From a virus, in the IMG/VR virus record IMGVR_UViG_3300033153_008203, positions 64,001 through 128,000 of that record: 64,000 nt of DNA. One strand, written 5' to 3'. The notes beneath the pieces were generated by a model. The model saw only the letters and a list, made by a program, of their open reading frames with translations. It was not told where the DNA came from and ran no database searches. Both the position numbers and the translations under genes were made by a program. Positions 22,038 through 57,835 of this stretch are shown here, piece after piece. The first letter of the stretch is position 1. Each line of letters opens with the position of its first letter.

Positions 22038-25000
22038 TTACTCCAATACCTCACTAAAGACTTCTGCTAGCCCTTCTTTTACATCTTCCCATGCATCTTC
22101 GACATCATCGAAAGCCTCACCGAACCTATCGCTATACGCCGACCACAACGTATTGTGTTTGAATCCTTCTATGCCAGCTACAAATGGAACCTTATTAACA
22201 ACAAGAGGCTTAATAATAATTGGCTGGCGCTCTTGAGTTTCTTTGATATAAACTGATCCAATCCCATATAACACAAATGCACCAACTGCGAAGATGCCAC
22301 GCTTGCCTACAGTTTTGTAAGCCACACCCAAGAGCCCCTTAAATCCTCCTCTAAGCTTTAGTGAAGCACCGCCTTTTGCTTTAAAATCAGTGACCTTGTT
22401 TAATAATGTAGACCCTGTTGCCGTAATCTTTGTTTTGGCACCAACTTTAGCTGCACCATATGCGTCCACTGTAGCCGTGCCTAGTCCTACTGACCTAATA
22501 TAGTCTCTTCCCTGCCAATACTTAATTAAACCGGTCTCAGCCAAATCAACTACTTTACCTTTACCGTATAACGAGTATATGTATCCAGTTTTTGCTGCAC
22601 TCTTTATTTTGTCTCCAGCAATTAGTCCTTTTAGAATACCTGTTTCAGTTGCGCCTTTTACTGCCTTTTCCACTACGCCTTTTGGTGTTGTACCTAACAC
22701 TGCTCCTATTACATGGGGTGCAGCCTTTACACCTGCAAACCTTAATTTTGACCAAAGAGCACCAGCTCCTAAGTACTTCAGATAGTTTATCTCTCCCATT
22801 GCTTGTTGCAATGCCATAGTTGCATACTCATTTCCACTAACACAAAGATCTGGAATTATCTCTGTTATAAATCCAGTCTCACTAGAGAAATGATGAACAA
22901 CTTGCTCTACTTCTACAGGACCATACATATCAGCTATGTCGTCAAAAACATGACACACATCATATGGTTTAATCTTTGGATTTCCTAGTACGGTAATGCT
23001 TCCAGTATACACGTCTTTTAGATGTCTTAGAAGTAATCCTTGTGCATATCTAGTAGCCATAAACTCTCCTTCACAGTTTGGCTGCTGAGAGAACAGTAGG
23101 TTTACATTCTCATCTCTAAGATCTTTATCAACTTTAAGAGTTTTCGTATTACCTGTCTTATAGTTAACGTTACCATACTCATCTATCTCTTTTACATCAT
23201 CGACATATTGCACAGTTACTGCATTATAAACGTCTGCATTTACCTTTATATCGTTTGATATGATATTAATCTTATCCGCCAAATAAAAATGCTTTCTGAA
23301 TGGAGTAAATCTGTCTCTAACTATACTTTTTCTTATATTGACAGCACTCTCATCTAGCTCTACTGGAATACCTGATATACCATCTCTCCTTCTGTTTTGA
23401 TTAAGCAGTGTTATTGCTGTACTATGTCCAGGCACTTCTTTCCTAAGCGGAGAATTCTTTTGATACTCTTCTATTGTCTCAGGCCTACTCCAATGTCCCA
23501 TATCTGGTACACCAAAAAACATCGACATCCTGTCGCCATATATTGTAGGCGAAGCAATCCATCCTGGATGTCTAAGCTCCATCTCCTTAAAGATGTCCCA
23601 TATGGTAGTATGAAATATCTTGTAGTCAAGATTAACATATCTTTCTACCATTCCGGTAGCAAATCCATGCATAAAAAGACCTGCAGTTACAACTCCACCT
23701 GTAGCCGCTCCAGCAGTAATTTTAGCAGATGCTACTAGTAGACCGCCATCCCAAAATGCTGTCTTAAATCCTTGTTTAATGCCTTCTGCTATGTTTAGAT
23801 CCCAAGCAGATCCTCCCCAATCAAAGAAATTGCTATCAGTTAAATACAACTCTATACTTGGAGGAAAAATATTATCATCTCTTGGATCTAGATTTGGACC
23901 ATACAACGAGTTTCCTGCTGACGCTATCTCTTCTTTACCTGTAAGAATAATATTAGCAATAGCTGTTTTCTTTCTAGTTCCAAAATGAACAACTTCTGGA
24001 GATTGCATTATCTTAGCAAGCAATCCACCTGTTATTTTCTCAGGTTCTTTTTTTATTTCTTCAGGCTCTTCTACTCCCTTTATCTGACTAACAAGCTCTG
24101 TTGCATAACTCTGACATACAATTGTAACTGCATGTGTTCCTCCAACCTCTACTATCTGTCCATTAAAAACAGTCTCCAATTTTCTCGGGTCATTAGAGTA
24201 TCCTAGTCTTACCTGTATTTTTTGTCCAGGTCTAAGTATTAATGCATCTATTGGATTCTCTGATAAAGACTCTTTGTCTGTTCCTCTTGTCTCATAGAAC
24301 TTGTCATCATCACCAGCATTATATTTTGCAACACTAGTTAGTTTTTGATTCAAGTTAGACATTGTCAATATGCACAAGTCTGCAGGAACTTTTCTGCTCC
24401 TGATTATTTTAATATCATGTACAGCATTATACCCAAAAAAGTCATCAAAGCTTAATCTTGGAATCAAATGAAACTCTTCGTCTTCATCTTCTTCAATAAA
24501 GTATACCTTGTATGTTGGATAAGCCCTGTTCATTGTAAAGATTTCATCGTCATGCGCTTGATCAACTAGTGTGTCAAGCATACCTTTTAGTCCAGTTTGA
24601 CTAAAATCATGAGACTTTACAAACTTTTCATTTATTTTAAAGTAGTCTGTCTTTGTACTGTTGCCGTACTCCTCTGGTCTCTCATGACCATTTGTAGCTG
24701 ATTCTCCAGACCAAACATCTGCTGGTCTCCATTCTTTCTGTACTGTCTCCATTTTCATTGCTATCTCTAATGACTCTTCAGCATACTGCTTAGTATCATT
24801 AAGTAGCTCATTAAAATACTCAGTGTGATTGTCTTCGCTCCAGAAATAATAGTCTGGATCGGTGTCTATAGGCTCATTTGTTATTGTAGTTGGCAAATTC
24901 AAGTCTCTATAACACTCAGTTAAAGACTGTGTTCTGAGCTTGTTTATTTCTTTATCTACACTCTTAAATTGATCTAACTGAAAAATCCCGTTTCCAAACA

Positions 25001-27154: not shown

Positions 27155-30100
27155 TTAGCCCTCTATTAGTCTATCTATCATTTCAGCGGTTATTGTCCTT
27201 GAATTGTCATTTATATTAACGTTAACATTAGAAGGCATTTTCATTCTTTCCATTATTTTTTGGCTTATCTCATTATAGTCTACATTTGCAGATTCCCTAC
27301 CCCTAATTCTTACAACGCTTGACATAGGAGTTGTGTTTTGATCTACCATTGCCTTTGGCGTATGCTGCATAGCTTGTGGTGAACCTACTTGTCCAGCCTT
27401 TAATTGGCCTCCCTGTATACTCTCTGGATGTATATACTTAGGCTTAGCCTGAAAATTTAAGTCAGGTATAACCATCTCTCCTGCTGATCCTCGTGGAGGT
27501 CTTGATGGTGGTGCCATAATATTATGTCCGCCAAAAGGAGTCTCTTCTCTAGATTTTGCACCAAGATAAAAAAGTCCTCCCGCCAAAGCAGTTGCTGCTG
27601 CAACCATTGCTGTTCCTTTACCCATACCAGCAAATTGACCTTTCATCATAGTCTTCACATTAGCAGTAAGAGTTTCTACAGCAGAATATCCAGTTGCTCC
27701 TGATTTCATTGACAAAATAGGATCAGGCATCATAGCACCATGCATTGATCCGCCTGCTGCGTCTGCAGTTCTCAAGACTCGCATCGGATCACTTGCAAGC
27801 CTTAGTGCTGCTGCAGTAGTTGGTCCTTTGCGACCAATGTGCATAAATGCCTTTAGGTCTTCAGCTTTTACTGCTGAACCTTTCCTTGCCTTTAAAGATC
27901 TAGTAACTATTTCCTCGACATCTATTCCTTGTTCAGCAAGCTTACTCAAATCAAATCTTTTGCCTACCGCTTCAGATATTTGGCCTGCACCTTCTATTAT
28001 GCCTTCAGGACTCCTGGCACCACGAATAGCTTTCATTATTCTTTGCGACTCTCCAATCATTGCTTTAGCTTCTGCTGGAGTCATGTGCTTTGCAGATATG
28101 ATTTCCTGAGGAACATTTTCATACAATTGCTGTGCACCTGCTATTATTTTTTTATCTCCAGATGCAGCAGCGCTTTCAAGTATGTCTTCAAATGCAACAT
28201 CTAATGCTCCTATTTCAGATGTAACTGCCATCTTTAACTGTTCTCCTAGCTGACTGAATTCAACTGCTGCGGCACCAGATACAGCTCCTCGTTTTGCTCT
28301 ACTGAATATCGCTGCTGATTTTGCAAAGTCATCAAAGGTAGCAGTAAGCGTTTTGTGCTTTAGCATTTTTCTAGCAGTTTCTTGTTCCCTTTTATTCATG
28401 ACTGTTGTGACTATTACATTATCTCCATCATAGTCTCCTCTCAGCACTTTCATGACAGACTCGCTAGCTTCAAGCTGATGACCAAGTTCGTCAAGCTTAG
28501 AATCGTATCTTAGTCTAATTGGAAACGCACCTGTCTTACCTGTTATTGGATGTCTAGCTACTAAACCTTCAACAGCTTCTCCTCTTAAAAAGGCTTCACG
28601 CTGAGACTTTACAAATGCCTTATCGGTTGAGTCTGCCCACATCTTTTCCATAATATTGCGGCTTGCTTTAACCTCTGCTTCTCTTTCAATCCATCTTCCT
28701 GCTTCAGCAGAAGGAAATGGCCCTATGAATCCTGTAGCCTGACTCTGAACTCTCGTGTAAACAAAACCAGGAGTCTTGGCTTTACCTGCCGTAGCTCTAG
28801 CATATTGCGTAGAAAGCTCAATATCAAGATTCTTCATTGCAGCAGTAACGTCTTTCGCTGATTCCTTAGTCATTACAGCAGAAAGAAGTTCTGAGTATCT
28901 TTTAAGTGTTGATAGAGCCTCTCTTTTGCCAGCTTCACCAGGACGCGTTCCCATTCCAGTTACTTCAGTTATTGACGGCAAATACATATGCTTCTTAAGA
29001 CCGTATGTCTTTTGTTGCTCTTCTGTAAACTTTAGCAGCGTGCCTTCTTGACTCCATATTGTCTTGTCACTGGTTCGCCTAAGCATTGATCTATCAAGCT
29101 CCTGTGCACCAGCAAACTGTTGCTCTGTTAGCAGCTTAGAAAGGTTAGCGTCTCCAGCTACAGACAGCATTGCTTTTCTTAGTTCTGTTACAGCTCCGTA
29201 TGACTTGCCCAGTCTTCTTTGGCCTACAATCTCTGCGACTCCTTCTCCTGTAGGTCCTCCTAAACCGGCCTTCCATATTGCTCTTGTCTCAAATGATCCT
29301 TTTACCATCTCATGAGCACCAAGCTCTCCACCTGGAACAACCTGAGCTATACCAAATGCAAATGGGTTCCTTTTAATATATTCTAGTTCTTTTTCACTGA
29401 AATCTATAGCTCCAGACAGTATTGCACTGGATTCTTCTTTTATCTCTTTAGCATATGTGCCAAATACCATTCCAAACTCAACACCAGTTAAGCCATGCTT
29501 TCTTGACAATGCTAATAGCTTACGCTCAACACCATATGCTTGGCCTTGTACGTCAGAAAGATACTGTAATGGATCATCAGTAAACGCATTATTAACACCA
29601 GCTTGACTAAGGATATGTCTTAGCCCTGTTGTCATTTGATATTTTCTGGCTCTAGGATCTTTAAATAGTGCCTCATAATGCGTAAAAGCTTCTGGCTTAA
29701 TTCCTGTTCCTGAAACTTTTTGTGCATACTTAGCTAACATACTTGACTCTTGAGGCCTCAATACACTTTTTACTCCACCTTCTCCAAATACTTTTTGGGC
29801 TACGCCTCCTCTTACTTGTCTTTCTATCTCTACTGTTACGTAATCGGTGCCTGATGCCTTTTTTACACTCTTTATTATGTCTGTAATATCGTCACCAACG
29901 GTTTGAGATATTAGCTCATCTAAGTCTGATGTCTTTCCACCATATACAACCTCTCCTGCTGCAGTTGTTGTCTTTAGCAGCTCACGTCCCATACCTAGTC
30001 GTGCTCCTGCTGCCAACCTAACAGGTTTCCCTGTTGCTTGTGCTTCGACTATTTCTGGTGCCAAAGGAAGAATTCCAGAGCTCTCTAATATACGATACTT

Positions 30101-31597
30101 ACGTGTTGACTGAGTATTAAGCATTTCTGTAATCGTATCTGAAACTGCTATCTCTCCTTCTCTAACGCCAAGGTCCATCATGTCAGGCATATACAGCATT
30201 GGCATATTAAGGTCTCTTATATTGGCCATCTGTATTGCAGCTTCAGCTGTTACTGTCTTTCTTATTCCTCTTGCCTTCTCAAACATTCTTACACTCTGTA
30301 CTGCATCACTAGTAAGAGTTGTTTCAGGCCTTATAATATGAAGAGGTTTTCGCGCCCAACGTGTCTCTTCTCCAAAAGGAACAAGCTTAGTCAAATCTAC
30401 ACCACGCTGAAACGGATAGAACTGTCTACCACCTTCGGTTCTTATTATCTCTCCTTTTGGGCTATAGAATATGCCCGGTCTTGCTACTTGTTTCTCTATC
30501 CATGCTGGCAAATCTTCTGGAGCCATATCTTTTGGCAACTCTATATTGACTCTACTTGAACGCATTGTTTCCCAAACTCCAGAGACTCCAGTTTCAGGAC
30601 CAGCAGGCATAGCTTGAGGAAAAAAGTCCCCATACAGTTTTCTCATGTCTTTTAGATTGTCTTTTCCTTCCGCCTTAAAATGATGTAATCCAGCATCCCA
30701 CTTAGCAAGCAACCCATTCTTATTGACAAGGTCTTCTATAATGAACTCTCCAAAGTTTAATAATCTTCCCTTGGCTCCTTGACGCTCAAGAGTATCTACC
30801 TCTCCAAATATGTTAGATGCGAGAGAACTTACGGGCACACTAGAGGTCAATGGTATCTGCATTGTACGTCTTGCCCTATCAGCTCCAGTTGCCTTGCTTA
30901 TTCCGAACTGCATGACTGGTGCACCTGCGATCTCTTTAATACTAAAACCAGTGCTTACATCAAACTTATCAGGAAAGTTTTTACCTACAAGCTCTGAAAC
31001 TCTAGCATGTAGCTTAGTTGCATGTCCTTTGTGTGTGCTTCTATTAGTAATATCTAATACTTCTTCAGGTGCAAAGCTATATTCGGTTGTTAGTCTCTTA
31101 ACGTCTAAGTCGTCAACCATTGCAACTTGAGACCTTACATTCTTCATCAAAGATGTCCTTCCCATTCTTTGGGAAAGATTCTCAAGCTTCTGAACAAGTT
31201 CTCCAGAACCAACTGATGGAAGCCCATCAACCTCTAGCAACCCTTCGTTTCTCATTAGGTCTTGTACATCTGCAACACCTAAATGCCTAAAGGTCTGCAT
31301 TAAAGCATTACGAGTAGCATGCTCTAACTTGAAGCGCATATTCCTATCCCCTTTATTCTGAATCCTAATCAAGTCCTGAAGAATCTGCTGATTTACAGTC
31401 GTAGCTTTTACAAATGGCTCTTTGCTTCTAGGGTTAATCATGTTCTGAAGTCCCAGTCTGCCTTGACGAGACTTAAGCCTATATGGGTCTAAAGAATCTT
31501 CTACTGTCTTAAAGTTATACACGCCCTTAACATCACGAAGATGTTGCTTGAGACTTCTATTCTGTTTTTTTATCTTATTGTCTGACATTAAATCCAA
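27155..31597 (-). CDS. Putative single-chain two-barrel (double-psi beta-barrel) RNA polymerase, probably virion-packaged
   Basis: 1480 aa; likely true start MSDNK at 31588 via a TAATG overlap. Beta-like barrel: REGEIAVSD and VTVEIERQVRGGVAQKVFGEGGVKSVL (K602-x7-K610, compare GDKMAGRHGNKGV). Beta'-like barrel: LVARHP (R1015) and RGDYDGD (D1055/1057/1059, compare NADFDGD). Downstream QEIISAKH resembles a trigger loop. Hydrophobic C-terminal segment. Confidence 0.75.
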   Translation of the reverse strand: MDLMSDNKIKKQNRSLKQHLRDVKGVYNFKTVEDSLDPYRLKSRQGRLGLQNMINPRSKEPFVKATTVNQQILQDLIRIQNKGDRNMRFKLEHATRNALMQTFRHLGVADVQDLMRNEGLLEVDGLPSVGSGELVQKLENLSQRMGRTSLMKNVRSQVAMVDDLDVKRLTTEYSFAPEEVLDITNRSTHKGHATKLHARVSELVGKNFPDKFDVSTGFSIKEIAGAPVMQFGISKATGADRARRTMQIPLTSSVPVSSLASNIFGEVDTLERQGAKGRLLNFGEFIIEDLVNKNGLLAKWDAGLHHFKAEGKDNLKDMRKLYGDFFPQAMPAGPETGVSGVWETMRSSRVNIELPKDMAPEDLPAWIEKQVARPGIFYSPKGEIIRTEGGRQFYPFQRGVDLTKLVPFGEETRWARKPLHIIRPETTLTSDAVQSVRMFEKARGIRKTVTAEAAIQMANIRDLNMPMLYMPDMMDLGVREGEIAVSDTITEMLNTQSTRKYRILESSGILPLAPEIVEAQATGKPVRLAAGARLGMGRELLKTTTAAGEVVYGGKTSDLDELISQTVGDDITDIIKSVKKASGTDYVTVEIERQVRGGVAQKVFGEGGVKSVLRPQESSMLAKYAQKVSGTGIKPEAFTHYEALFKDPRARKYQMTTGLRHILSQAGVNNAFTDDPLQYLSDVQGQAYGVERKLLALSRKHGLTGVEFGMVFGTYAKEIKEESSAILSGAIDFSEKELEYIKRNPFAFGIAQVVPGGELGAHEMVKGSFETRAIWKAGLGGPTGEGVAEIVGQRRLGKSYGAVTELRKAMLSVAGDANLSKLLTEQQFAGAQELDRSMLRRTSDKTIWSQEGTLLKFTEEQQKTYGLKKHMYLPSITEVTGMGTRPGEAGKREALSTLKRYSELLSAVMTKESAKDVTAAMKNLDIELSTQYARATAGKAKTPGFVYTRVQSQATGFIGPFPSAEAGRWIEREAEVKASRNIMEKMWADSTDKAFVKSQREAFLRGEAVEGLVARHPITGKTGAFPIRLRYDSKLDELGHQLEASESVMKVLRGDYDGDNVIVTTVMNKREQETARKMLKHKTLTATFDDFAKSAAIFSRAKRGAVSGAAAVEFSQLGEQLKMAVTSEIGALDVAFEDILESAAASGDKKIIAGAQQLYENVPQEIISAKHMTPAEAKAMIGESQRIMKAIRGARSPEGIIEGAGQISEAVGKRFDLSKLAEQGIDVEEIVTRSLKARKGSAVKAEDLKAFMHIGRKGPTTAAALRLASDPMRVLRTADAAGGSMHGAMMPDPILSMKSGATGYSAVETLTANVKTMMKGQFAGMGKGTAMVAAATALAGGLFYLGAKSREETPFGGHNIMAPPSRPPRGSAGEMVIPDLNFQAKPKYIHPESIQGGQLKAGQVGSPQAMQHTPKAMVDQNTTPMSSVVRIRGRESANVDYNEISQKIMERMKMPSNVNVNINDNSRTITAEMIDRLIEG

Positions 31598-38147: not shown

Positions 38148-38897
38148 TTATATAACATCTCTTGCAATGAAAGTGTATGCCTCCTGAATAGGTTCTCCAC
38201 TTACTTCAACTAATTGAGACTGCCCTACAAGTTCAACCTGCCTTATTCTCCTAGCAGTGTGGTTTGATGATGCGTCATCTAGATTTCCAAACGTAAGAAA
38301 TATATCAAAATTATCCATTAAATCTGGTCTACGCAATCCTTCTTCAAATGGACCTCTTGCTGCAGTGCTACCTCCTGGTCCCCATATCGCATCTTCAAAC
38401 TTTTCAGCAATATTTTCAAACTGAGAATCTGGAAGGCTAGACAGATCTGACAAGTCTTTCATTGTCTCTGGCGTTACTCCCTTTTGTATTAGAGTCTCTA
38501 TGTTTGCTTTAACTATTGGACTAGTTGAGGTTATCTTGTCTGCCTCATAATCTGGAGAAGAAGGAATAGGACTTTTTGATATACTATTTCTTACAATATG
38601 ATCTAATACTATGTGCAGATAACCAGCTTCTTTAAAGTTGATTGTAAAATTACCAGTAACAATAGTTGTACCTTTTGCTACAAAATCCCAATGATGAGAT
38701 GCATAGCCATATATTGGTCTCTTCTGTTGTTCCATTCTATACTGTATAGATGTTATTTCGTCTATTAATATGTCGCCGATATATAAGGATACATTAGCAC
38801 CGGAAAAATGATCGTAGTCGTATTGTTGTTGACCAGGAACCATTCCTTGATTACTTGGTTTAGATCCATATTCTCTACTTGGTAATTTAGGTGGCAT
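38148..38897 (-). CDS. Tail tube-like paralog (probable tube initiator, gp48/gp54-like)
   Basis: FSGANV...IQYRMEQQKRPIYGY...AKGTTIVTGNFTINF aligns with the tube protein (FSGVDI...ISYSVTREKAPIY...RGKRGIAGSLIF). Confidence 0.65.
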   Translation of the reverse strand: MPPKLPSREYGSKPSNQGMVPGQQQYDYDHFSGANVSLYIGDILIDEITSIQYRMEQQKRPIYGYASHHWDFVAKGTTIVTGNFTINFKEAGYLHIVLDHIVRNSISKSPIPSSPDYEADKITSTSPIVKANIETLIQKGVTPETMKDLSDLSSLPDSQFENIAEKFEDAIWGPGGSTAARGPFEEGLRRPDLMDNFDIFLTFGNLDDASSNHTARRIRQVELVGQSQLVEVSGEPIQEAYTFIARDVI

Positions 38898-39622
38898 TAG
38901 AATTTAAGTCCCCCTTTTAAATAATTTTTCATTCTTTCTTCTGAGCTTTTTTTCATCATAAGATCGCTTGCTGAAAGAGCCATATCTGTTTGAAGTCTCT
39001 TAGATGTATCTGTATCTGGAAGCATAGGTCTAATATCTTGTGCTATGTATTGCACTACATTTTCTGTGAAGAAGTCCTCTATAGACATTGTAATACCTTC
39101 AGATATTATCTCAACCCCGTATATTACTAGTGAAGATGCGGCTCCATATTCGTTTGCAAAAGTTACAGTTACATCGAATCTTGGAAGCTGATCTATGAGA
39201 GGCGTAGACAAATCGCTACTTGTATCAGGAGCTATCCTTTTCATAAGATCATACAAGACTTGCTTATTGAACATCGTAAAGATCATAGTTCCACTTATTG
39301 TACGTGGGCCTCTTGTAAAACCTTTTGGATATCCCATTCCTATTGTTCTTACAGGATATTTTTCCCGATAAATAGAATAAGAAAGCGTCTGTATGTCTCC
39401 TAGGACTAGTGGCTTACTAGAGTGTTCAGTGTCATTCTCTTGTCCTGTTCCTTTTTCTTCACCTGCTTTATTAATAGGCAAGAAGTCTATTGGGATATGA
39501 ACAATAGCTTTGATGTCTGCTCCACTATACACGTCGTATCCTGATGGAGCGTCTATGTCTTGCTGTAAGCTAGTCGCATATGCAGCAGATGAGATATTAT
39601 TATTAGTATTTGCCATTGTCAC
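38897..39622 (-). CDS. Tail tube-like paralog (probable tube initiator)
   Basis: YSGADI...QTLSYSIYREKYPV...RGPRTISGTMIFTMF...DQLPRFDVTVTFANEYG is clearly homologous to the adjacent tube gene. Start may be ATG 39616. Confidence 0.7.
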   Translation of the reverse strand: MTMANTNNNISSAAYATSLQQDIDAPSGYDVYSGADIKAIVHIPIDFLPINKAGEEKGTGQENDTEHSSKPLVLGDIQTLSYSIYREKYPVRTIGMGYPKGFTRGPRTISGTMIFTMFNKQVLYDLMKRIAPDTSSDLSTPLIDQLPRFDVTVTFANEYGAASSLVIYGVEIISEGITMSIEDFFTENVVQYIAQDIRPMLPDTDTSKRLQTDMALSASDLMMKKSSEERMKNYLKGGLKF

Positions 39623-39626
39623 CTAC

Positions 39627-39663
39627 AAAAAAATAGCGGCCAGCCAATAAAGGCATGGCCGCT
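39627..39663 (-). terminator. Intrinsic terminator after the major tail tube gene
   Basis: Minus strand AGCGGCCATGCC-TTTATT-GGCTGGCCGCT followed by ATTTTTTT. Confidence 0.8.
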
Positions 39664-39693
39664 TTATAATTTAGATTAATTGATACGATTATA

Positions 39694-40332
39694 TTATACT
39701 GGATCCCCTACGTTAGCAACAGGATTCTGTACAGTCCAAGGAGCTATACCACGGCACACATAAGTGTACTGTTGTTCTGAGACTATGTCATCAATGCTGA
39801 CTCCATATCCTTCGTTAAGGATTTCAACGCCATAGATTCTCATAACTGAAACTGCACCATATTCGTTAGCTGCACTTAATGTTACATCGAAAGGCAACAT
39901 TTGATCTGTGTACCAAGGTTTATCAGCTGCTTTCTGTGCACCTGATGTAGGGACACCTATCAGTTCGCCTTCTTGTACGTTGGTAAGCTGGGTTATTCCA
40001 GCAAGAGTCGTTGCTCCACCAATGCTTGATCCTGTTGGCTCATTCAATGAAGAAAAACCTGGAGGTCTTGGGTCATTTTTCTCGGCTGCAAACTTGAACC
40101 CACCCATCTCGTCAAGCAATGCATTCCTATCAAACATTGTGAATATTAGTGATCCTGCTATGCCTCTTTTACCTCTAGAAAAAGCTCTTGGATCAGGTGA
40201 GCCCATCGTATAAATAGGGGCCTTTTCTCTTGTAACAGAGTAACTTATGCCTTGCAAGGCGCCAATTACTTGGCTACCAAACACAGCAGTTATGTCTACT
40301 CCGCTAAAAGAGTTATATGCCTGTTCTGCCAT
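39694..40332 (-). CDS. Major tail tube protein
   Basis: 212 aa directly after the sheath and followed by a terminator, which fits a high-copy product. Strong AGGAGG SD; beta-rich tube-like pattern. Confidence 0.75.
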   Translation of the reverse strand: MAEQAYNSFSGVDITAVFGSQVIGALQGISYSVTREKAPIYTMGSPDPRAFSRGKRGIAGSLIFTMFDRNALLDEMGGFKFAAEKNDPRPPGFSSLNEPTGSSIGGATTLAGITQLTNVQEGELIGVPTSGAQKAADKPWYTDQMLPFDVTLSAANEYGAVSVMRIYGVEILNEGYGVSIDDIVSEQQYTYVCRGIAPWTVQNPVANVGDPV

Positions 40333-40350: not shown

Positions 40351-42279
40351 TTAGATTAATGCGCTAAGCGACAATACTATAGTGATTTGTCTTAACTCGA
40401 ATGCAGGGACAAGCTTAAGTTCTATTGTTGCATCACCTTGTATCTGTTGTACAGGCGTAGATGTAACAGACAAAACAAATCCTTGTATGTATCCTTCTCT
40501 CTGAAGTGACCCTAGTCCAGCATCAACTGCAGTTTCAAGCGCTGCCCTTCTCTGAGCTGTGTTTGCTTCTCCAACGAATGGATCGGCTACTGCTCTTACA
40601 ACATCTATAGCATCTTTAACGATCCTCACTGTTGAAAGTCTAACGTAATCTGAACTCTGTCTTGCAGCAGTAGGAGCATCAGCAACAACGGTTCCCTTAG
40701 GTCTAAGAGCAAGCATTGTATACTTGGCGCCAGCAAGATTATCAAGCACAGTATTGTTTAAGCCATGTATTGCCCTTACAGAAGGGATTACCTTGTTAGT
40801 AGGTGCTGACTTAGACTCAAGAGACATAATCAGACCAGCATAGCTAGGTGCTCCGTTTGTGACATATCCGTTAACATTTGTTGTCCACTGGTTGGCAAGC
40901 CTTCCATAACTTGGAACAACTGATATGTATTTACCGATATCAACAAGCTCGTTATTCTGATCAGAGATTTCTGAACCACCTAAGTTTCCAGAATCAGTAG
41001 CAATAAAACCACCTTGTGCATCTCCACTTCTGTAGCCTGCTGATCCAGCCATAAACTTGTTTCCAAGAAGGCCTGATCCATTGTCTCCAGCATCATTTAT
41101 AAGTCTGCTTCCGTCATCTAGTACAGTATACGTTGGAAGTGATCCAACCCAAATTGCAATGTCTTTTGGACTAAAGCTTGTTGGAGGAAGCATTCCTATT
41201 GTACCTATACATTCATTGTTATTTACTGACAAGTTGAAACAAAAGTTTGCCAACTGATAACCAAAATTGACCTCAATAAAGCTGCTAGCAGTTAGAGTAT
41301 CTCCAGCTGCATTGGTTGTTGCTGATGCACTAGCTACAGATGGATAAATATTACACCCAGCATCAGTAGTAAACACATCTCCAAGATCACCCTGAGGATT
41401 AGATGGCAACCACCAGTAGAAATAATTCTCTCCTTGGTACTCTTCGATGTAAACTCTTCCAAGAACGTCCTTCTCACCATTTGTTACAGGATAGTCTGAA
41501 AGCGCAGCAAGACCAAGATCAGTTACGTCATCTGATGTCAAATCAACTATGTTTGTATCATCGACATATGCGTCCATAGGAATTACCATGTCGATTCTTT
41601 CGTTCTCAAGTGCCTTGTATGTATTATACAGATACTCGTAAAGCTTCATCCTTGATGGATCAGTACCGTCTGTTCCTGCTGTATATAGAGCTGTTATTCC
41701 AGAAAGAGCATCTACATCCTCAAGAGGAATTGCTCCTGTAGCAGAATCAGTACCTATTACTTCACCAAAAGTTCCGCCAAGAACAGAACCAGATACAATC
41801 ACATCAAGTGTATCTATTTCGCTTCCAGACTCATTACTATATACTAAAAAGTCATCAGAAGCTCGCCATACTTTAAGTAGGCCGGCATCACCGTTCTCAT
41901 TAAAATCAAAGTGAATGTTATATAGAGCTCCAGCAGTATTGTCTTTATCTGAAGTCTCTACGATATAGCCATAATCTCCAGTTGCTGCAAATGCTGTATT
42001 ACCAACACCTTCAAGCTTAGCTGAAGTAGCTCCCATCCTATATATTCTTACATTTGTTGCACCGCCATCTTTGACCTCATACAGTCCTCTTACAAGAGTT
42101 CCGCTAAGTCCAAATTGCGCTACTGTGTCAGCAGTTCTTACTACTCTAGTTAGTTGGTCTCCGGCGCCTTGTGCTGATGTTCCCAATACAACTGTATTAG
42201 GTGCAGTTTCAGGCGTAAATATATCTAGACCACCATCGATTTTCTCACTGAAAACCCCAGGTAAATTTTCGAAAGCCAT
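40351..42279 (-). CDS. Contractile tail sheath protein
   Basis: N-terminal LPGVF; C-terminal DYVRLSTVRIV...PFVGEAN...IELKLVPAFELRQITIVL sheath signature. Confidence 0.88.
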   Translation of the reverse strand: MAFENLPGVFSEKIDGGLDIFTPETAPNTVVLGTSAQGAGDQLTRVVRTADTVAQFGLSGTLVRGLYEVKDGGATNVRIYRMGATSAKLEGVGNTAFAATGDYGYIVETSDKDNTAGALYNIHFDFNENGDAGLLKVWRASDDFLVYSNESGSEIDTLDVIVSGSVLGGTFGEVIGTDSATGAIPLEDVDALSGITALYTAGTDGTDPSRMKLYEYLYNTYKALENERIDMVIPMDAYVDDTNIVDLTSDDVTDLGLAALSDYPVTNGEKDVLGRVYIEEYQGENYFYWWLPSNPQGDLGDVFTTDAGCNIYPSVASASATTNAAGDTLTASSFIEVNFGYQLANFCFNLSVNNNECIGTIGMLPPTSFSPKDIAIWVGSLPTYTVLDDGSRLINDAGDNGSGLLGNKFMAGSAGYRSGDAQGGFIATDSGNLGGSEISDQNNELVDIGKYISVVPSYGRLANQWTTNVNGYVTNGAPSYAGLIMSLESKSAPTNKVIPSVRAIHGLNNTVLDNLAGAKYTMLALRPKGTVVADAPTAARQSSDYVRLSTVRIVKDAIDVVRAVADPFVGEANTAQRRAALETAVDAGLGSLQREGYIQGFVLSVTSTPVQQIQGDATIELKLVPAFELRQITIVLSLSALI

Positions 42280-43496: not shown

Positions 43497-44869
43497 TATG
43501 ATCTAGGCTCCCAAGTATTTTTCCACCTATAATAGTGTGCTTCTTTTGTATTAGCAGCAGGAACTGATCCACTTTGCTTTTCCCATACTCTCCCAATCAT
43601 TGGTCTATTAGGATCGTAAAGACCTTTAACTGCCATAGTAAAGTCTTTCTCGTTACCTCCATTCATAAGAAGAGGTTGCCACTTCTCTACGCAATCAGCA
43701 AGTCTATCTAGTATTCTTGGTAAATGTCCCGTATCATATTGGACTTCAAAGTCTCCAAGCTTCTTCTTAGATATTCCACCTTCCATAGATATTCCCTGTA
43801 AGAGTATCCCGGATGCTTCACATATCACAAAGTTTCTTTTTACCATATCAAAATATGCTTGATTGGTAATAGTCCCTGTATATGCCAGTACGTCAGCAAT
43901 TCTACTTGCTTCAAATATAGCAAGGTTAATTGTGTCATCTGGTATACCTGATAAGAATCCACCTATATCTAGTCTAATCCTTCTTGGCGTCACGTATAAA
44001 GGAGTATAAGTAGTTGTAAAATAAAAAGAATAGTCGCCGCTTATAACGTTCCCATTCTCGTCTTTTAAACTACCTCCTATAGTAACAGTTACCGCATTAT
44101 TTATAACCAAAGAATCTGTCATCGTTAATGTTACAGTTCCTCCTGTTACACTGCTAGTAAATGTTATTGTGCCAGCAGAAGGAATAGATGTATCACCATT
44201 AACAGACTCTGCGATAATTGATATTGCAGAATCAACAGTAGCATCATCAACGTTAACATTAAAATCTAATATTATTGTATCTGTTGCTATATCAAGGTTG
44301 GTTGCTCTATTAGCAGGTATGCTGCTCAGCAGCTTAAATGGGTCAGATACAACAGACGATACTGCTGGTGGTACAGACACTGCAGTTGAAGATACAGTAG
44401 GGACTTCAGATACACTTCCACTACCAGTTGTAAATTTCCATATATATGTTCCTACTAGAACTGTGGAATCTACCGCTGCTATAGGCGGAACTATATTGTC
44501 GTCTAAACCTTCATCTCCTGCAAGATATATGACATATTCTGTGTTGGGTGCAAATGGAGCAGTAGGGGTGAATGTGGCTTTTGTGCCATACTCTCCTCCT
44601 CCAAGATCTTCTTGTGAAAAAGAAACAACTCCACTTATATATTCATCTCCACCGAAGTCAAGAAGAACATTTTCAGGAGATGTATTCTCTATTACTCTTA
44701 TACCAGGGGTAGACCAGGCAGAATCGTCTGGTCCAGATACCATGAATGTGGATGTAGTAATCGTTGCTTCATCCATTAATTGGTTGAAAACAACTGATAT
44801 CTGAGTTTGAAGCGGAAGCCCTAAAGAAGCATCTAATGGATTAACTGATTCTATTTCTACTATAGCCAT
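43496..44869 (-). CDS. Head-tail adaptor with two N-terminal Ig-like (Big_5-type) domains
   Basis: Two Big_5-like domains (ISVVFNQLMD...TFTPTAPFAPNTEY...WKFTT; IILDFNVNVD...SLKDENGN...FYFTT). C-terminal adaptor-like region (YVTPRRIR...IPDDTI...KKKLGDFEVQY). Confidence 0.65.
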   Translation of the reverse strand: MAIVEIESVNPLDASLGLPLQTQISVVFNQLMDEATITTSTFMVSGPDDSAWSTPGIRVIENTSPENVLLDFGGDEYISGVVSFSQEDLGGGEYGTKATFTPTAPFAPNTEYVIYLAGDEGLDDNIVPPIAAVDSTVLVGTYIWKFTTGSGSVSEVPTVSSTAVSVPPAVSSVVSDPFKLLSSIPANRATNLDIATDTIILDFNVNVDDATVDSAISIIAESVNGDTSIPSAGTITFTSSVTGGTVTLTMTDSLVINNAVTVTIGGSLKDENGNVISGDYSFYFTTTYTPLYVTPRRIRLDIGGFLSGIPDDTINLAIFEASRIADVLAYTGTITNQAYFDMVKRNFVICEASGILLQGISMEGGISKKKLGDFEVQYDTGHLPRILDRLADCVEKWQPLLMNGGNEKDFTMAVKGLYDPNRPMIGRVWEKQSGSVPAANTKEAHYYRWKNTWEPRS

Positions 44870-54383: not shown

Positions 54384-54827
54384 TTATATAGTGTTCTCTG
54401 TATAACTAAGTCTTAATGATACGTCAAGCTTTAGCCCTACATGTATTCCTCTTGGTGATGTTATTCTATACCAAAATGGTTCGCTTCCTATGCCACTTAA
54501 TTCATTTGGATCATCTGGAATTGAAACAGATGCTCCCGCCGTTATTGTAGCCCATTCAGCATCTGATGGCTGAAGATTTCCAAGACTAATCTTAATACTC
54601 CATCCAGACTGAATCCCCTCTATATCATTAGGATACTCTGTGTCAGCAAAATCAATTACAACATCAGTGTATTCTTTTGCAGCATCATCGTTTCTTACAT
54701 ATAAAAGAACATCTCTAGATTGCTCTACACGTCCATCATGAACTGTTGTAATTGGATTTGTCTGGTCGCCGTTAGATGAGTAAGCAGTCCATTCTCCACC
54801 ATCTAAATCTACTACTTGAATTCCCAT
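54384..54827 (-). CDS. Hypothetical beta-rich virion protein
   Basis: 147 aa, acidic and beta-rich (LYVRNDD...PFWYRI); coupled to TerL by TAATG. Confidence 0.45.
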   Translation of the reverse strand: MGIQVVDLDGGEWTAYSSNGDQTNPITTVHDGRVEQSRDVLLYVRNDDAAKEYTDVVIDFADTEYPNDIEGIQSGWSIKISLGNLQPSDAEWATITAGASVSIPDDPNELSGIGSEPFWYRITSPRGIHVGLKLDVSLRLSYTENTI

Positions 54828-57800
54828 TAGATATTGCTCCTGCTAGGTCTTGAGTTTCTAGTTTTACTGATTCCTTTTCTAATCACTTTACTATTTACAT
54901 TATTGTACCCTTTAATCATTCCTGGCAAACCCCTGCTAAGAATCATATCGCTCTCTATGGAAAATCTTTCTTGAGGTCTTGCTGCATCTCTTTTATTATC
55001 AGCTTGCTTTCTTCTGTAACTGTTCTCTATTACAAGCTCAATTGTTCCTGGCATAGGCGCTTTCTTAGAAGCTGGCATATCACCAAAAGAACCACCAAAT
55101 GAAACTGCACTAATAACAAGTGATTGACCAAACTCTGTGTATTCCATTGTAAATGCAAGTAGCGCTAGTACCATAGCATCTAGCTCATGGTCTCCAACTC
55201 TCTTATTTCCCTGAGCATATACTGGCGCACCAGACTGAGTCCTTCTTTCAACTACGTAACCAAGCAACTCTTGCTCAAGTTCATCGTCATGTTTTGACAA
55301 CTCTATTAGGTCGTGCTCAAAATACCTTACTGAGTTCTCTATCATGTATGGCTTAGCAGGCTTATTTTCCGTTATACCAGTCCTTATGTTTCTGGTTTCA
55401 AGAGTACCGCCAGCACTAATACCTTTTACATATCTAAGCATAGAATCAGGATGAGCTGCACCTACCTCACTAAGACTCTTTTCTCCAAACTGTTGAAGCA
55501 ACTCTATTTGAGTCGTACCGAATCCAGCATCACAATAAATATGTGCACATTGCCAGTATTTATTTACTTCTCTTATTTTGTCTATTGCTATTAACTGAGT
55601 CCATCCAACTCTATCTACACAGTGTTTTGCTACAATTCTATATTTATTCTTAGCTGTGTCGTGCCCTATAATACAAATCTGCGTACCTATGGCTGTGTCG
55701 TTCCAGTCCACACCCATTGTATAGATCCATCCATCCATTCTTTTCTGTTCTTCATACTTGTATTCCGTTAAAGCCTTATCAACATACTGGTTCTGATAAA
55801 CGCCTTCTACTTCTTCTCCAAACTCAGCAAGGATCTCGTGCTGATATCCGGCCTCTGTTCCAGCATCAAGCCTGGCATCCCTATCCATCTGATCATTCCA
55901 GAAAGGAAGAACTGTTGAAGGATAATGAAACTCTCTAAATCTTGAGTCATGGCACTGGTCATAGAAACGCTCTCTACGACCTGTTGGAGTACTACTAGTC
56001 CATAACGTAACATTTGGGTTAGTATAAAGAATCGCTCCAATAGCATTAAGGTCATCAGGATCAAGGTAATCGGCCTCGTCAAGATATAGTGCATCAGCAG
56101 AGTTATGAACAATAACATTATTTGCTATAAAATTATGTGTATCGCTAACCTCTATGTCATATGCTAACTCTTTCCCGATATAGAATATGGATTTAATTGT
56201 ATCCAGAACGACATTATTGCTTTCAGACTTGTGATATTGGCTCTTAGTTTTATGTTTAACTAAATCAAAAACTTCAGCGCAAATCTCTTCTTTTCCATAA
56301 ATATATCCTATATCAGACAAAAACCTTCTAACATAAAAGCCAGATCTAACTTTAACGATATATTGTTTAGCAGTATTATAGTGCTCCCATTTCTTATCTC
56401 TTTCTTGTATTTTTGATACAACTCCGAGTTCAGCTAGTAATTCTTGTAGCTCATGAGCCAACCGCTTAGATACTGTGCAATATCCGATCTCTACTTGTGG
56501 TCCTCTCTTTTGATTAGAGTAACAGCACCAGCCATCTGTTGCAAACAGTTTTCTTATGAATAGTTTTTTATTCTCTTTTGTGCTTGTTTTGATTATAGAT
56601 GGGACGTGCTTATCGTATGAGAGTTTGTTTGCAACTTCATACTTTTCTAGAATGTCTAGAATGTGTTTATGTTTTATTTTAAGACCACTTACCCTGATAT
56701 TTTTAGTGTTTTTCGTTTCTTTCTTATTTTGAATACCAAAATAAACGTCCTTTTTATCAAGAATGTTGGTAAAATCATTAAGAATTTTTACATTTTCATT
56801 TATAAAATCAATAGCACCACGATCAATTACCTTCTTACCACAGCTTCCATCACCTATCATATATGCTGCAAACGATATCTCATCTTCATCTAACGCATTA
56901 GCTTTCTCAAGATCATAGTCAACAACATAAGACAGATTATCTCCTACTCTCCAGTCTTTAAGGCTTTTCCATTCAAATTTATTCCCAGCCCTAACCACAT
57001 TAGAATCATGTCTAGTACCAACTCTTCCATATAGTTCATGATCTTTGCTGCAACTTATTGATCTTCCTGACTCAAGTTTAACTTCAAACAGATCTTTTAC
57101 ATTTGACTCAAAAACATGACTAACTGTTCCAACCACTTTATTATTATACTCATCAACTGAAACAACTCTGTCTCCAACCATAATGTCTTTAATGTTCTTT
57201 GCTTTACCTGAAGCCATTAGTACTGCAGAATCGCACCTTAAGCACTGGCCTCTTACACCGTCTCCCTTAGATCCGCTTCTAGAACCAGAAGTAAACAGTT
57301 TTATAATAGATCCATTATGTAGCTCTATTTCTGCATAAGGAGTCTTAACATTTCTTTTGAGGGAATTTTTTAAATCATTAGAATCAAATATAAGCTCTAT
57401 CAATCTGTCATAAATGACCTGAGCATGAGACTTCTGTGGGCATACAACAAGAATATCATGACCATTTCTAGTAGACGCATTGTACAATATGTTTATGCAA
57501 AGGGAATCTGTTTTTCCTGATCTACGACCAATTCGTGAAATTTTTCTTTTTGCATCACACCTAAGCATTGTAGCTTGATATTCTATGTCATCTCTAGATG
57601 TACGTGGGTGCCAATCAAGAACAGCAGCTGCCCATCCAATAGGATCAAGCAAAGAGTTTGCTGCTTTTGCTTGTGCATCAGTTAAGGTTTTGCCTGATTG
57701 CTTTGCAAGCTTATATGCTGCCGGAAATATACCGGTACAATCTGCATCGAAAGTTCCATCCTTCGATTTAGCCATTACCTTTTCTCTACAACGAAGACAC

Positions 57801-57835
57801 TCTTCGCTTATGTTAGGATCATTAAAATCTGGCAT
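54827..57835 (-). CDS. terL: Terminase large subunit, intein-containing (about 621 aa after splicing)
   Basis: Walker A GRRSGKT, VRGQ|S..ALYLDEAD Walker B across the intein, coupling motif SSTPTG, nuclease MGVDW and DHELDA. Confidence 0.93.
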   Translation of the reverse strand: MPDFNDPNISEECLRCREKVMAKSKDGTFDADCTGIFPAAYKLAKQSGKTLTDAQAKAANSLLDPIGWAAAVLDWHPRTSRDDIEYQATMLRCDAKRKISRIGRRSGKTDSLCINILYNASTRNGHDILVVCPQKSHAQVIYDRLIELIFDSNDLKNSLKRNVKTPYAEIELHNGSIIKLFTSGSRSGSKGDGVRGQCLRCDSAVLMASGKAKNIKDIMVGDRVVSVDEYNNKVVGTVSHVFESNVKDLFEVKLESGRSISCSKDHELYGRVGTRHDSNVVRAGNKFEWKSLKDWRVGDNLSYVVDYDLEKANALDEDEISFAAYMIGDGSCGKKVIDRGAIDFINENVKILNDFTNILDKKDVYFGIQNKKETKNTKNIRVSGLKIKHKHILDILEKYEVANKLSYDKHVPSIIKTSTKENKKLFIRKLFATDGWCCYSNQKRGPQVEIGYCTVSKRLAHELQELLAELGVVSKIQERDKKWEHYNTAKQYIVKVRSGFYVRRFLSDIGYIYGKEEICAEVFDLVKHKTKSQYHKSESNNVVLDTIKSIFYIGKELAYDIEVSDTHNFIANNVIVHNSADALYLDEADYLDPDDLNAIGAILYTNPNVTLWTSSTPTGRRERFYDQCHDSRFREFHYPSTVLPFWNDQMDRDARLDAGTEAGYQHEILAEFGEEVEGVYQNQYVDKALTEYKYEEQKRMDGWIYTMGVDWNDTAIGTQICIIGHDTAKNKYRIVAKHCVDRVGWTQLIAIDKIREVNKYWQCAHIYCDAGFGTTQIELLQQFGEKSLSEVGAAHPDSMLRYVKGISAGGTLETRNIRTGITENKPAKPYMIENSVRYFEHDLIELSKHDDELEQELLGYVVERRTQSGAPVYAQGNKRVGDHELDAMVLALLAFTMEYTEFGQSLVISAVSFGGSFGDMPASKKAPMPGTIELVIENSYRRKQADNKRDAARPQERFSIESDMILSRGLPGMIKGYNNVNSKVIRKGISKTRNSRPSRSNI
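56102..57244 (-). mobile_element. Intein with LAGLIDADG homing endonuclease (381 aa) in TerL
   Basis: GQ|CLRCDS start, CSKDH block B, AYMIGDG and LFATDG LAGLIDADG motifs, YDIEVSDTHNFIANNVIVHN|S end. Inserted just before Walker B. Confidence 0.95.

Follow-up and report, generated by a model that had tools for sequence, protein, structure and literature searches.

The stretch of DNA examined here, referred to as the window, comprises the 64,000 nucleotides (nt) at positions 64001-128000 of the virus record IMGVR_UViG_3300033153_008203 in IMG/VR, a record of 145 kb that is estimated to be 75% complete. Matches to PHROG and Pfam families identify the window as the structural arm in the genome of a large tailed phage, in which all genes lie on the minus strand and follow the order large terminase (interrupted by an intein), portal, major capsid protein, tail sheath, three tube-like paralogues and two small proteins in the position of tail chaperones. 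These are followed by three giant proteins of 1789, 1477 and 1704 residues and then by a baseplate-wedge protein. The present account concerns the middle giant, P0004, which in its motifs and its predicted fold resembles a single-chain two-barrel RNA polymerase (RNAP). The coordinates of the features discussed are collected in Table 1.

Table 1. Features of the P0004 locus and of the surrounding record (window positions unless marked as record positions; aa, amino acids)
Feature	Position	Strand	Description
Gene P0004	27155..31588	minus	1477 aa, ATG start, stop codon included; single-chain two-barrel RNA-polymerase-like protein
Beta-like barrel region	29729..30211	minus	about residues 460-620; invariant E479 (EGE), K599 and K607
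Lysine pair K599 and K607	29768..29794	minus	K602/K610 in the earlier numbering; invariant, spacing x5 to x8 across the family
Beta'-like double-psi beta-barrel	28400..28768	minus	about residues 941-1063; holds R1012-H-P and D1052-Y-D-G-D1056
R1012-H-P	28547..28555	minus	invariant; 40 residues ahead of the Asp triad; ends model strand E577-583
DYDGD	28421..28435	minus	putative metal-binding Asp triad D1052/D1054/D1056; D-x-D-x-D invariant in all members
Helical region past the barrel	28085..28234	minus	invariant K1119, E1125 and QE(I/L)IS(A/G)KH (1161-1168); may hold the bridge helix and the base of the trigger loop
Membrane-type helix	27557..27613	minus	residues 1326-1344, the only one predicted in P0004; Kyte-Doolittle scan
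Conserved C-terminal end	27158..27355	minus	about residues 1412-1477: strand, DYNEI, NVNVNINDN
Upstream giant P0002	31588..36957	minus	1789 aa; homologue of 0305phi8-36 gp145; collinear BLASTP segments, E 2e-20 to 1e-7
LAGLIDADG intein in P0002	34342..35472	minus	377 aa; C496 to N872, then S873; Pfam Intein_splicing and LAGLIDADG_3
Downstream giant P0003	22038..27152	minus	1704 aa; baseplate hub showing homology to cell-wall-degrading proteins; matches PHROG families for hub, endolysin and tail
Tail sheath	40351-42279	minus	PHROG/Pfam
Perfect sigma-70 promoters	record 24025, 24152, 24234, 35266	plus	outside the window
Perfect sigma-70 promoters	record 135700, 134157, 132454	minus	outside the window
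Near-perfect sigma-70 promoter copy	record 35182	plus	outside the window
Near-perfect sigma-70 promoter copy	record 133675	minus	outside the window

Gene P0004 and its motifs

A preliminary description of this DNA had assigned the gene to an open reading frame (ORF) of 1480 residues on the minus strand (27155-31597). The ORF holds and the start is revised: the homologues all begin with MSDNK or a similar sequence, which places the start of P0004 at an ATG three codons inside the TTG of the listed frame and gives a protein of 1477 residues. Residue numbers of the preliminary description therefore equal the P0004 numbers used here plus 3. The start of P0004 overlaps the stop of the upstream gene in TAATG, an overlap that had been pointed out before and is confirmed at the junction, and the hub gene begins 2 nt past the P0004 stop.

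All of the motifs claimed previously, among them REGEIAVSD, KMAVTSEIGALD, QEIISAKH and the NVNVNINDN ending, are present where they had been placed, and the coordinates given for the lysine pair, for R1015-H-P (R1012-H-P in P0004 numbering) and for DYDGD are correct. Residues of the helical region that follows the second barrel may belong to a bridge helix or to a trigger loop, and their assignment to either element is tentative.

Family and conservation

P0004 belongs to a family of ~20 metagenomic proteins, whose identity falls as low as 17%. An exhaustive phmmer search over 1.84 billion representatives returned nine clusters, of which two are marginal and one is probably spurious, and a word-indexed profile search with the most conserved segment added a further, more distant clade of ~1570 aa. 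Scanning of IMG/VR contributed only one additional family locus. The sources are metagenomes or the metagenome-assembled genome GCA_004196275.1, and no member protein carries a name.

The alignment of 14 sequences, down to 17% identity, shows a set of invariant residues that includes E479, K599, F601, K607, R1012-H1013-P1014, D1052/D1054/D1056, K1119, I1164, S1165 and K1167. Such invariance of the motif residues at this divergence is more than would be expected by chance. The acidic triad and both lysines are thus conserved as the preliminary description had anticipated, although the exact patterns proposed there need loosening. The lysines of K-x7-K are retained with a spacing that varies from x5 to x8, and the three aspartates of DxDGD are retained while the glycine is not, other members having DFDADR, DVDADR, DFDKD or DFDDD, with A, K or D in its place. 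The best-conserved stretch of the entire protein is formed by the C-terminal 190 residues, and most members of the family have a membrane-type helix equally far from the C-terminus.

Predicted fold

An AlphaFold model was obtained for residues 430-1260 from a 12-sequence alignment (model numbering starts at 430), with a mean predicted local distance difference test score (pLDDT) of 70 and a predicted template modelling score (pTM) of 0.47. Foldseek returned 147 matches for the model in the PDB at E <= 1e-3, and the best ~50 of the 147 are all RNAP chains, nearly all of them beta' or largest subunits; the matches listed include the phage AR9, plastid, vaccinia and RNA polymerase I (Pol I) enzymes. 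A pass with VIA-align, which was exhaustive over 48,161 PDB representatives and independent of Foldseek, divides the model into two halves. The C-terminal half (model 384-831) aligns with largest subunits over 300-380 residues at Z 9.7-11.5. The N-terminal half (model 1-331) aligns with second-largest subunits, namely Pol I A135 (4c2m_B, Z 10.0), the African swine fever virus (ASFV) subunit (8q3b_B, Z 10.0) and Xanthomonas beta (6j9e_C, Z 8.2). The segment that carries R-H-P and DYDGD (model 512-634) further matches minimal domains of the double-psi beta-barrel (DPBB) type (7dww_A, 7dvc_A, 7dbo_B) over 82-83 residues at Z 8.2-8.5 with a root-mean-square deviation (rmsd) of 2.2-2.4 A, and falls within the regions matched to largest subunits.

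Single-chain polymerases are matched as well. QDE-1 (Z 9.6) and P23-45 gp96 (Z 8.1) align across both halves, and RDR2 (Z 9.7) and P74-26 gp62 (Z 8.4) over model 324-828. On re-scoring of the Foldseek top 1000 chains by VIA-align, 844 of the 994 alignable chains reach Z >= 8, with a maximum of 11.9, and the alignments with largest subunits extend to chain residues ~1360-1430, in the C-terminal third of the subunits. All seven rows returned by an ESM Atlas shape search are RNAPs; the nearest two clusters consist of phage or bacterial single-chain proteins with Rpb2_6 and Rpb1_2, aligned over model residues 1-831 (TM 0.32-0.34).

The order of the halves in the model is beta-like, then beta'-like. 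The predicted secondary structure around the motifs runs from a strand ending in R-H-P through strand, strand and helix to the Asp triad and a final strand, and the triad stands at the start of model strand E625-633, within the DPBB match. In E. coli beta', N-R-A-P presumably ends the equivalent strand, and we take the order of elements around N-R-A-P and N-A-D-F-D-G-D to be the same. Past the beta'-like barrel, the model has helices H684-735 followed by a loop, in the region of which the invariant QE(I/L)IS(A/G)KH appears to lie. K599 and K607 are likewise placed by the model in the region aligned to second-largest subunits. Residues 430-1260 are thus predicted to form two barrels with helical domains and not a long helical ruler.

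The fold proposed earlier is therefore borne out by the model, in that a DPBB surrounds DxDxD and the remainder resembles RNAP subunits, the beta-like part coming ahead of the beta'-like part. Together with the invariant triad and lysines, these predicted matches support the earlier identification of a single-chain two-barrel RNAP in the tail module. With the reservation due to a modelled structure, we consider it very probable that P0004 adopts the two-barrel fold of a polymerase and that its catalytic residues are intact.

Searches by sequence

No Pfam or PHROGs family matches P0004. Among the PDB sequences, which include 8H2M/8H2N and 8F5M, phmmer found nothing and the family profile found no RNAP at E <= 10. 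No match was found by tblastn of P0004 against 50,697 GenBank phage records, and hhalign of the family profile against the single E. coli beta and beta' sequences gave no similarity. The eukaryotic-type RdRP/YonO profile PF05183 matched none of 12 members at E <= 10 and nothing anywhere in the genome record. The only lead from a protein-language-model look-up, a phage Rpb1_2 cluster with a score of 0.81, was below threshold.

Tail module and tape-measure slot

The neighbours of P0004 relate the locus to Bacillus phage 0305phi8-36. Distant homologues of the hub P0003 were found by tblastn in jumbo myoviruses that are in culture, namely in the Bacillus phages 0305phi8-36, WH1, Edson and KLEB27-3, in Acinetobacter phage ME3 and in Moorella MTATph1. 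In 0305phi8-36, the chaperones gp143/144 are followed by gp145 (1930 aa), gp146 (2537 aa, the putative tape measure) and the hub gp147, and both gp145 and gp146 were detected in virions by mass spectrometry. Since P0002 is a homologue of gp145 and P0003 one of gp147, P0004 stands opposite gp146, in the tape-measure slot. The preliminary description had located the gene between tape measure and baseplate hub; the hub is correct, whereas the supposed tape measure is the gp145 homologue, a virion protein of unknown role.

Two members, with 24% and 18% identity to P0004 (L002 and L004, respectively), keep the order of chaperones, a giant of ~1400 aa, the P0004 homologue and the hub. On the contig of a third distant member, the P0004 homologue is followed by the hub, and the contig end truncates the upstream gene. 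Of the synteny proposed earlier, the hub is thus the neighbour in these three members, and the gene on the other side, which encodes a giant in two of them, is in the window the gp145 homologue and not a tape measure.

P0004 shares with tape-measure proteins its place between the tail chaperones and the hub, as judged by synteny with 0305phi8-36 and ME3, and a conserved extreme C-terminus. A long, mostly helical ruler as the bulk of the protein is not predicted for P0004. Its final ~150 residues consist of a hydrophobic helix rich in Gly and Ala, a linker rich in Pro, Gly and Gln, and an end piece of ~60 residues, and the same layout is found in gp146. The C-terminus aligns with gp146 residues 2474-2523 by BLASTP (E 0.005 over 53 residues) and with gp146 by hhalign (E 4e-4, probability 35%), in line with the tape-measure-like ending noted in the preliminary description, which here corresponds to the last ~55 residues of gp146. 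No D-x-D-x-D, R-x-P or Lys-pair motif is present in gp146. In the 0305phi8-36 lineage, only the last 60 residues of the tape measure are conserved, and the tape-measure role was assigned from tail length (Hardies 2007, PMC2147016).

Membrane-type helices are predicted in each of the three giants (P0002 48-66 and 448-466, P0004 1326-1344, hub 1619-1637), and all three may insert in the host envelope after ejection. The intein of P0002 interrupts a site (RKGRWWQLGNTPYIGGK) at which 0305phi8-36 gp145 is uninterrupted, which suggests that the site is functionally important in this protein, whose role in the virion is unknown. A second intein, likewise with a LAGLIDADG domain, occupies about residues 196-578 of the large terminase (1002 aa; window 54827-57835, minus strand; Pfam Intein_splicing E 3e-17), so that the structural arm carries two inteins. 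We also note that the three tube-like paralogues (249, 241 and 212 aa) are consecutive at window 38148-40332 on the minus strand, after the sheath gene, and that the matching position in 0305phi8-36 holds a tube protein together with a paralogue of it.

Promoters and other transcription genes

Around P0004 and its neighbours, the sigma-70-like signal is not above chance (53 sites against 53.6 expected). Elsewhere in the record, at least seven perfect TTGACA-N16/17-TATAAT promoters with common flanks (CTTGACAAAA-N-GCTATAAT) stand ahead of gene blocks that look accessory or early, three of them in tandem at record 24025-24234. Judged from its sequence, this promoter family suggests a host that recognises canonical -35/-10 elements, and early or accessory transcription driven by the host RNAP.

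Pfam models Rpb1_2, Rpb2_6, RdRP and Sigma70_r2 found nothing in the 145-kb record, which is 75% complete. A search of the same record for a T7-type RNAP gave no match; its control was silent too, so that this result is uninformative. In a motif scan of the ORFs of at least 350 aa in the record, R-x-P followed by DxDxD occurs in P0004 only. Two further observations concern replication and transcription genes outside the window. A DnaE/Pol III alpha-like protein with a PDIDMDF motif is encoded at record 28846-30513 (plus strand), as in 0305phi8-36, and a 278-aa frame shows a weak, sub-threshold Sigma70_r4_2 match (E 3e-4; record 44338-44469, minus strand) that might mark a phage sigma-like factor.

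A possible relative in Acinetobacter phage ME3

In Acinetobacter phage ME3 (vB_AbaM_ME3, NC_041884.1), the slot between the gp145 homologue and the hub is occupied by gp036 (L008 4806-9617; 1603 aa), which is annotated as hypothetical. It resembles P0004 in length, in slot and in the spacing of the lysine pair, and the small family to which it belongs retains the motifs K-x-F-x4-K, R-E-P, D-H-D-Q-D and K-x-S-H, as well as a hydrophobic segment late in the sequence and the ending N-I-T-D. The top hhalign alignment of the gp036 family with P0004 places R-E-P and DxDxD in register, but at E 0.0056 and a probability of 6.5% it is not significant, and hhalign of the P0004 C-terminal profile against the ME3 family aligned the hydrophobic helix alone (E 0.15). 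The AlphaFold model of gp036 is poor (pLDDT 53), and no match of any meaning came from VIA-align or Foldseek, which does not speak against homology. Protein gp036 is possibly a very distant member of the P0004 family in a cultured phage, and we regard it as a lead. If the lead is true, it would be new with respect to the published survey of jumbo phages and would put a cultured system at hand for direct tests.

Proposed role

The reading that we favour, with moderate confidence, is that P0004 is a single-chain two-barrel polymerase of the cellular type, most likely a DNA-dependent RNAP, which is made late, built into the tail, ejected and set to transcribe the entering DNA. In the proposed enzyme, the beta-like barrel would supply the two lysines and the acidic pair of EGE, and the beta'-like barrel, ~400 residues further on, would contribute R-H-P together with the metal site D-x-D-x-D. 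Behind the polymerase part would come the one membrane-type helix, the linker and the end piece described above. With its gene probably coupled in translation to its neighbours in an operon of sheath, tube, chaperones and hub, the protein would be made late and incorporated in the tail through its tape-measure-type C-terminus. Contraction would then expel it through the tube, the hydrophobic helix would anchor it at the cytoplasmic membrane, and it would transcribe the first DNA to enter and might help to draw the DNA in. Delivery through the tail is plausible, and we judge it fairly probable. The C-termini of tape measures are located at the hub and are the first part to leave the tail, and in long-tailed phages they are thought to insert in the envelope and to form a conduit for DNA (PMC10770324).

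Several observations weigh against this proposal. Likeness to any known RNAP was not detected at the level of sequence by Pfam, by the PDB profile or by hhalign. The TM-scores of the model matches are low (0.15-0.34), and the model is of moderate quality. The C-terminal likeness to gp146 is weak, as the hhalign probability indicates, and the mass-spectrometry evidence for virion presence is that of gp146 only, a positional counterpart that lacks polymerase motifs. The perfect sigma-70 promoters imply that the host RNAP serves part of the programme, so that an injected RNAP is not obviously needed; the claim that P0004 is injected for early-gene transcription is weakened by them, and the targets of the injected enzyme, if it exists, may be located in the quarter of the genome that the record lacks. 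Finally, a folded polymerase of >100 kDa cannot fit the lumen of the tail tube, and to be packaged it would have to be unfolded or metastable, or to reside elsewhere in the virion. The same puzzle of size is unsolved for gp96 of phage P23-45.

A wider version of the proposal extends it to an entire branch within the 0305phi8-36-like large myoviruses, possibly including ME3 with its gp036, which would have turned the tape measure into an injected polymerase and so, with a contractile tail, coupled DNA entry mechanically to the first transcription. On this account, the enzyme would travel unfolded in the tube and refold at the inner membrane, where the helix would anchor it beside the channel, and it would transcribe the genome as it emerges. 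The origin of such an arrangement would be independent of that in P23-45, as no sequence similarity exists between the two. We consider this branch-wide scenario doubtful.

Alternative explanations

The fold and the catalytic residues would fit equally well an active two-barrel RNAP that is not packaged and works in the producing cell, for example in late transcription or in other late RNA synthesis. No other RNAP is detectable in the 75% of the genome that the 145 kb represent (with the control of the T7-type search silent), and 0305phi8-36 does carry a non-structural RdRP-like RNAP, orf99. Such a role is nevertheless unlikely, if not negligibly so, because the gene sits among virion genes with overlapping or near-abutting junctions and keeps this position in all relatives examined, because a membrane-type helix and a tape-measure-type end would be superfluous for an intracellular transcriptase, and because an enzyme required for the late operon could not be encoded there alone. 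Tail delivery of a polymerase with another product or template, be it a primer-making or RNA-templated enzyme of the QDE-1/RDR kind or a PolD-type DNA polymerase, at work on the incoming genome, would accord with the matches of QDE-1 and RDR2 to the model at Z 9.6-9.7, with sigma-70 promoters that suggest that ordinary early transcription falls to the host RNAP, and with a two-barrel superfamily that includes RNA-dependent and DNA-synthesising members (PMC10770324, PMC7824862). We find it quite unlikely, given that the best matches are DNA-dependent RNAP subunits, ~2 Z units above QDE-1, that the nearest Atlas clusters hold Rpb2_6 and Rpb1_2, and that no Pfam RdRP signal was obtained from 12 members or from the genome record. 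The characterised phage members of the superfamily, moreover, all transcribe DNA.

The slot, the tape-measure-type C-terminus and a positional counterpart, gp146, devoid of any polymerase motif would also suit a tape-measure or ejection protein in which the polymerase-like core is a non-catalytic structural relic. The residues expected for catalysis are, however, all invariant in a family that has diverged to 17% identity, which suggests selection on chemistry and not on a scaffold, and the core is predicted to be globular with two barrels and not an extended helical ruler; a relic is thus improbable. That the motifs arose by chance in a protein unrelated to RNA polymerases is what the failure of every sequence-based method to tie P0004 to an RNAP family would lead one to consider. 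We regard this as very improbable indeed, since Foldseek, the exhaustive VIA-align pass and the ESM Atlas all return RNAPs, for both halves and in the right order, since 844 of 994 Foldseek-ranked chains score Z >= 8, and since the motifs are invariant and stand on the expected strands.

Significance

Virion RNA polymerases allow the phage programme to start independently of the host and to resist inhibitors of the host RNAP. To our knowledge, few kinds are known, namely those of N4 (T7-like), phiKZ and AR9 (multisubunit), the crAss-like phages (gp66) and P23-45 (gp96). As a tape-measure-linked virion RNAP is already among them, P0004 would not be categorically new. If the favoured reading is true, it would provide a second link of a two-barrel polymerase to a tape measure, and the first in a contractile-tailed phage, in the form of a new sequence family left unnamed by Pfam, PHROGs, PDB-sequence and GenBank-phage searches. 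It raises the questions of how an enzyme of >100 kDa passes through a tail tube, of what determines tail length when a polymerase occupies the ruler slot, and of why a phage with strong host-type promoters has an enzyme of its own. The case suggests that large "hypothetical" proteins of tail operons merit screening at the level of fold.

Comparison with known systems

Phage 0305phi8-36 is comparable with respect to the locus. It has the two chaperones, the gp145-like giant, the slot protein and the hub in the same arrangement, and the neighbours of the slot protein are true homologues. The slot protein itself differs, in that the 2537-aa gp146 shares with P0004 the last ~55 residues and the helix-linker-end layout, and has no polymerase motifs. 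The RdRP-like RNAP of 0305phi8-36, orf99, is separate and non-structural (PMC2147016). In a survey of jumbo phages, RNAPs were found in group 3 for 0305phi8-36 and Clostridium phage c-st only (PMC7824862).

With respect to the core, the best structural matches are provided by the fused beta-beta' single-chain RNAPs and by the beta and beta' subunits of multisubunit enzymes, which have the barrels in the same order and the Lys pair, R-x-P and DxDxD in common with P0004. The fused enzymes are recognised by Pfam RNAP models, have neither a membrane helix nor a tape-measure end and are not encoded in tail operons. The P0004 family is not recognised by these models, and P0004 has a membrane-type helix and a tape-measure-like end and is encoded in a tail operon. 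Enzymes of the QDE-1/RDR2/YonO type and gp66 of the crAss-like phage phi14:2 are, like P0004, single polypeptides with two barrels, and none of them is encoded in a tape-measure slot. We take the triad of QDE-1 to have the DYDGD form, as in P0004. The gp66 protein is absent among the structural matches listed; the crAss-like case is one of a virion-delivered enzyme, as proposed for P0004, within a very large protein.

The preliminary description held that no characterised system matches this arrangement. That view has to be given up, as gp96 of P23-45 is the closest precedent: it is a tape-measure protein whose N-terminal 1200 residues form a two-barrel virion RNAP that transcribes the pre-early genes (PMC10770324; PDB 8H2M/8H2N). 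Like gp96, P0004 would be a single-chain two-barrel polymerase that is linked to tape-measure sequence on one polypeptide of the tail module, to which its slot and its C-terminal ~150 residues may correspond, and the role proposed is the same, which is to transcribe the first genes during DNA entry. The gp96 structure 8h2n_A aligns with both barrels of the P0004 model over 184 residues (Z 8.1, rmsd 4.2 A), and the likeness to gp96/gp64 is structural only (Z 7.4-8.4), the PDB profile search having given no sequence relationship. The activity and virion presence of gp96 were shown experimentally, whereas P0004 is known computationally alone. Strong sigma-70 promoters are present in the P0004 genome, unlike in the P23-45 case.

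P0004 would differ from the gp96 precedent in four further ways. Its family is an orphan in sequence; its phage has a contractile tail, in contrast to the very long, non-contractile tail of P23-45; and it is a separate protein of 1477 aa with a tape-measure-type end piece of ~150 residues only, compared with 5002 aa and ~3800 residues of ruler in gp96. Fourthly, while gp96 is described as flat and clampless, the C-terminal half of the P0004 model is nearer to clamp-bearing largest subunits (Z 11-12), so that the predicted core looks closer to the clamp-bearing beta/beta' enzymes than to gp96.

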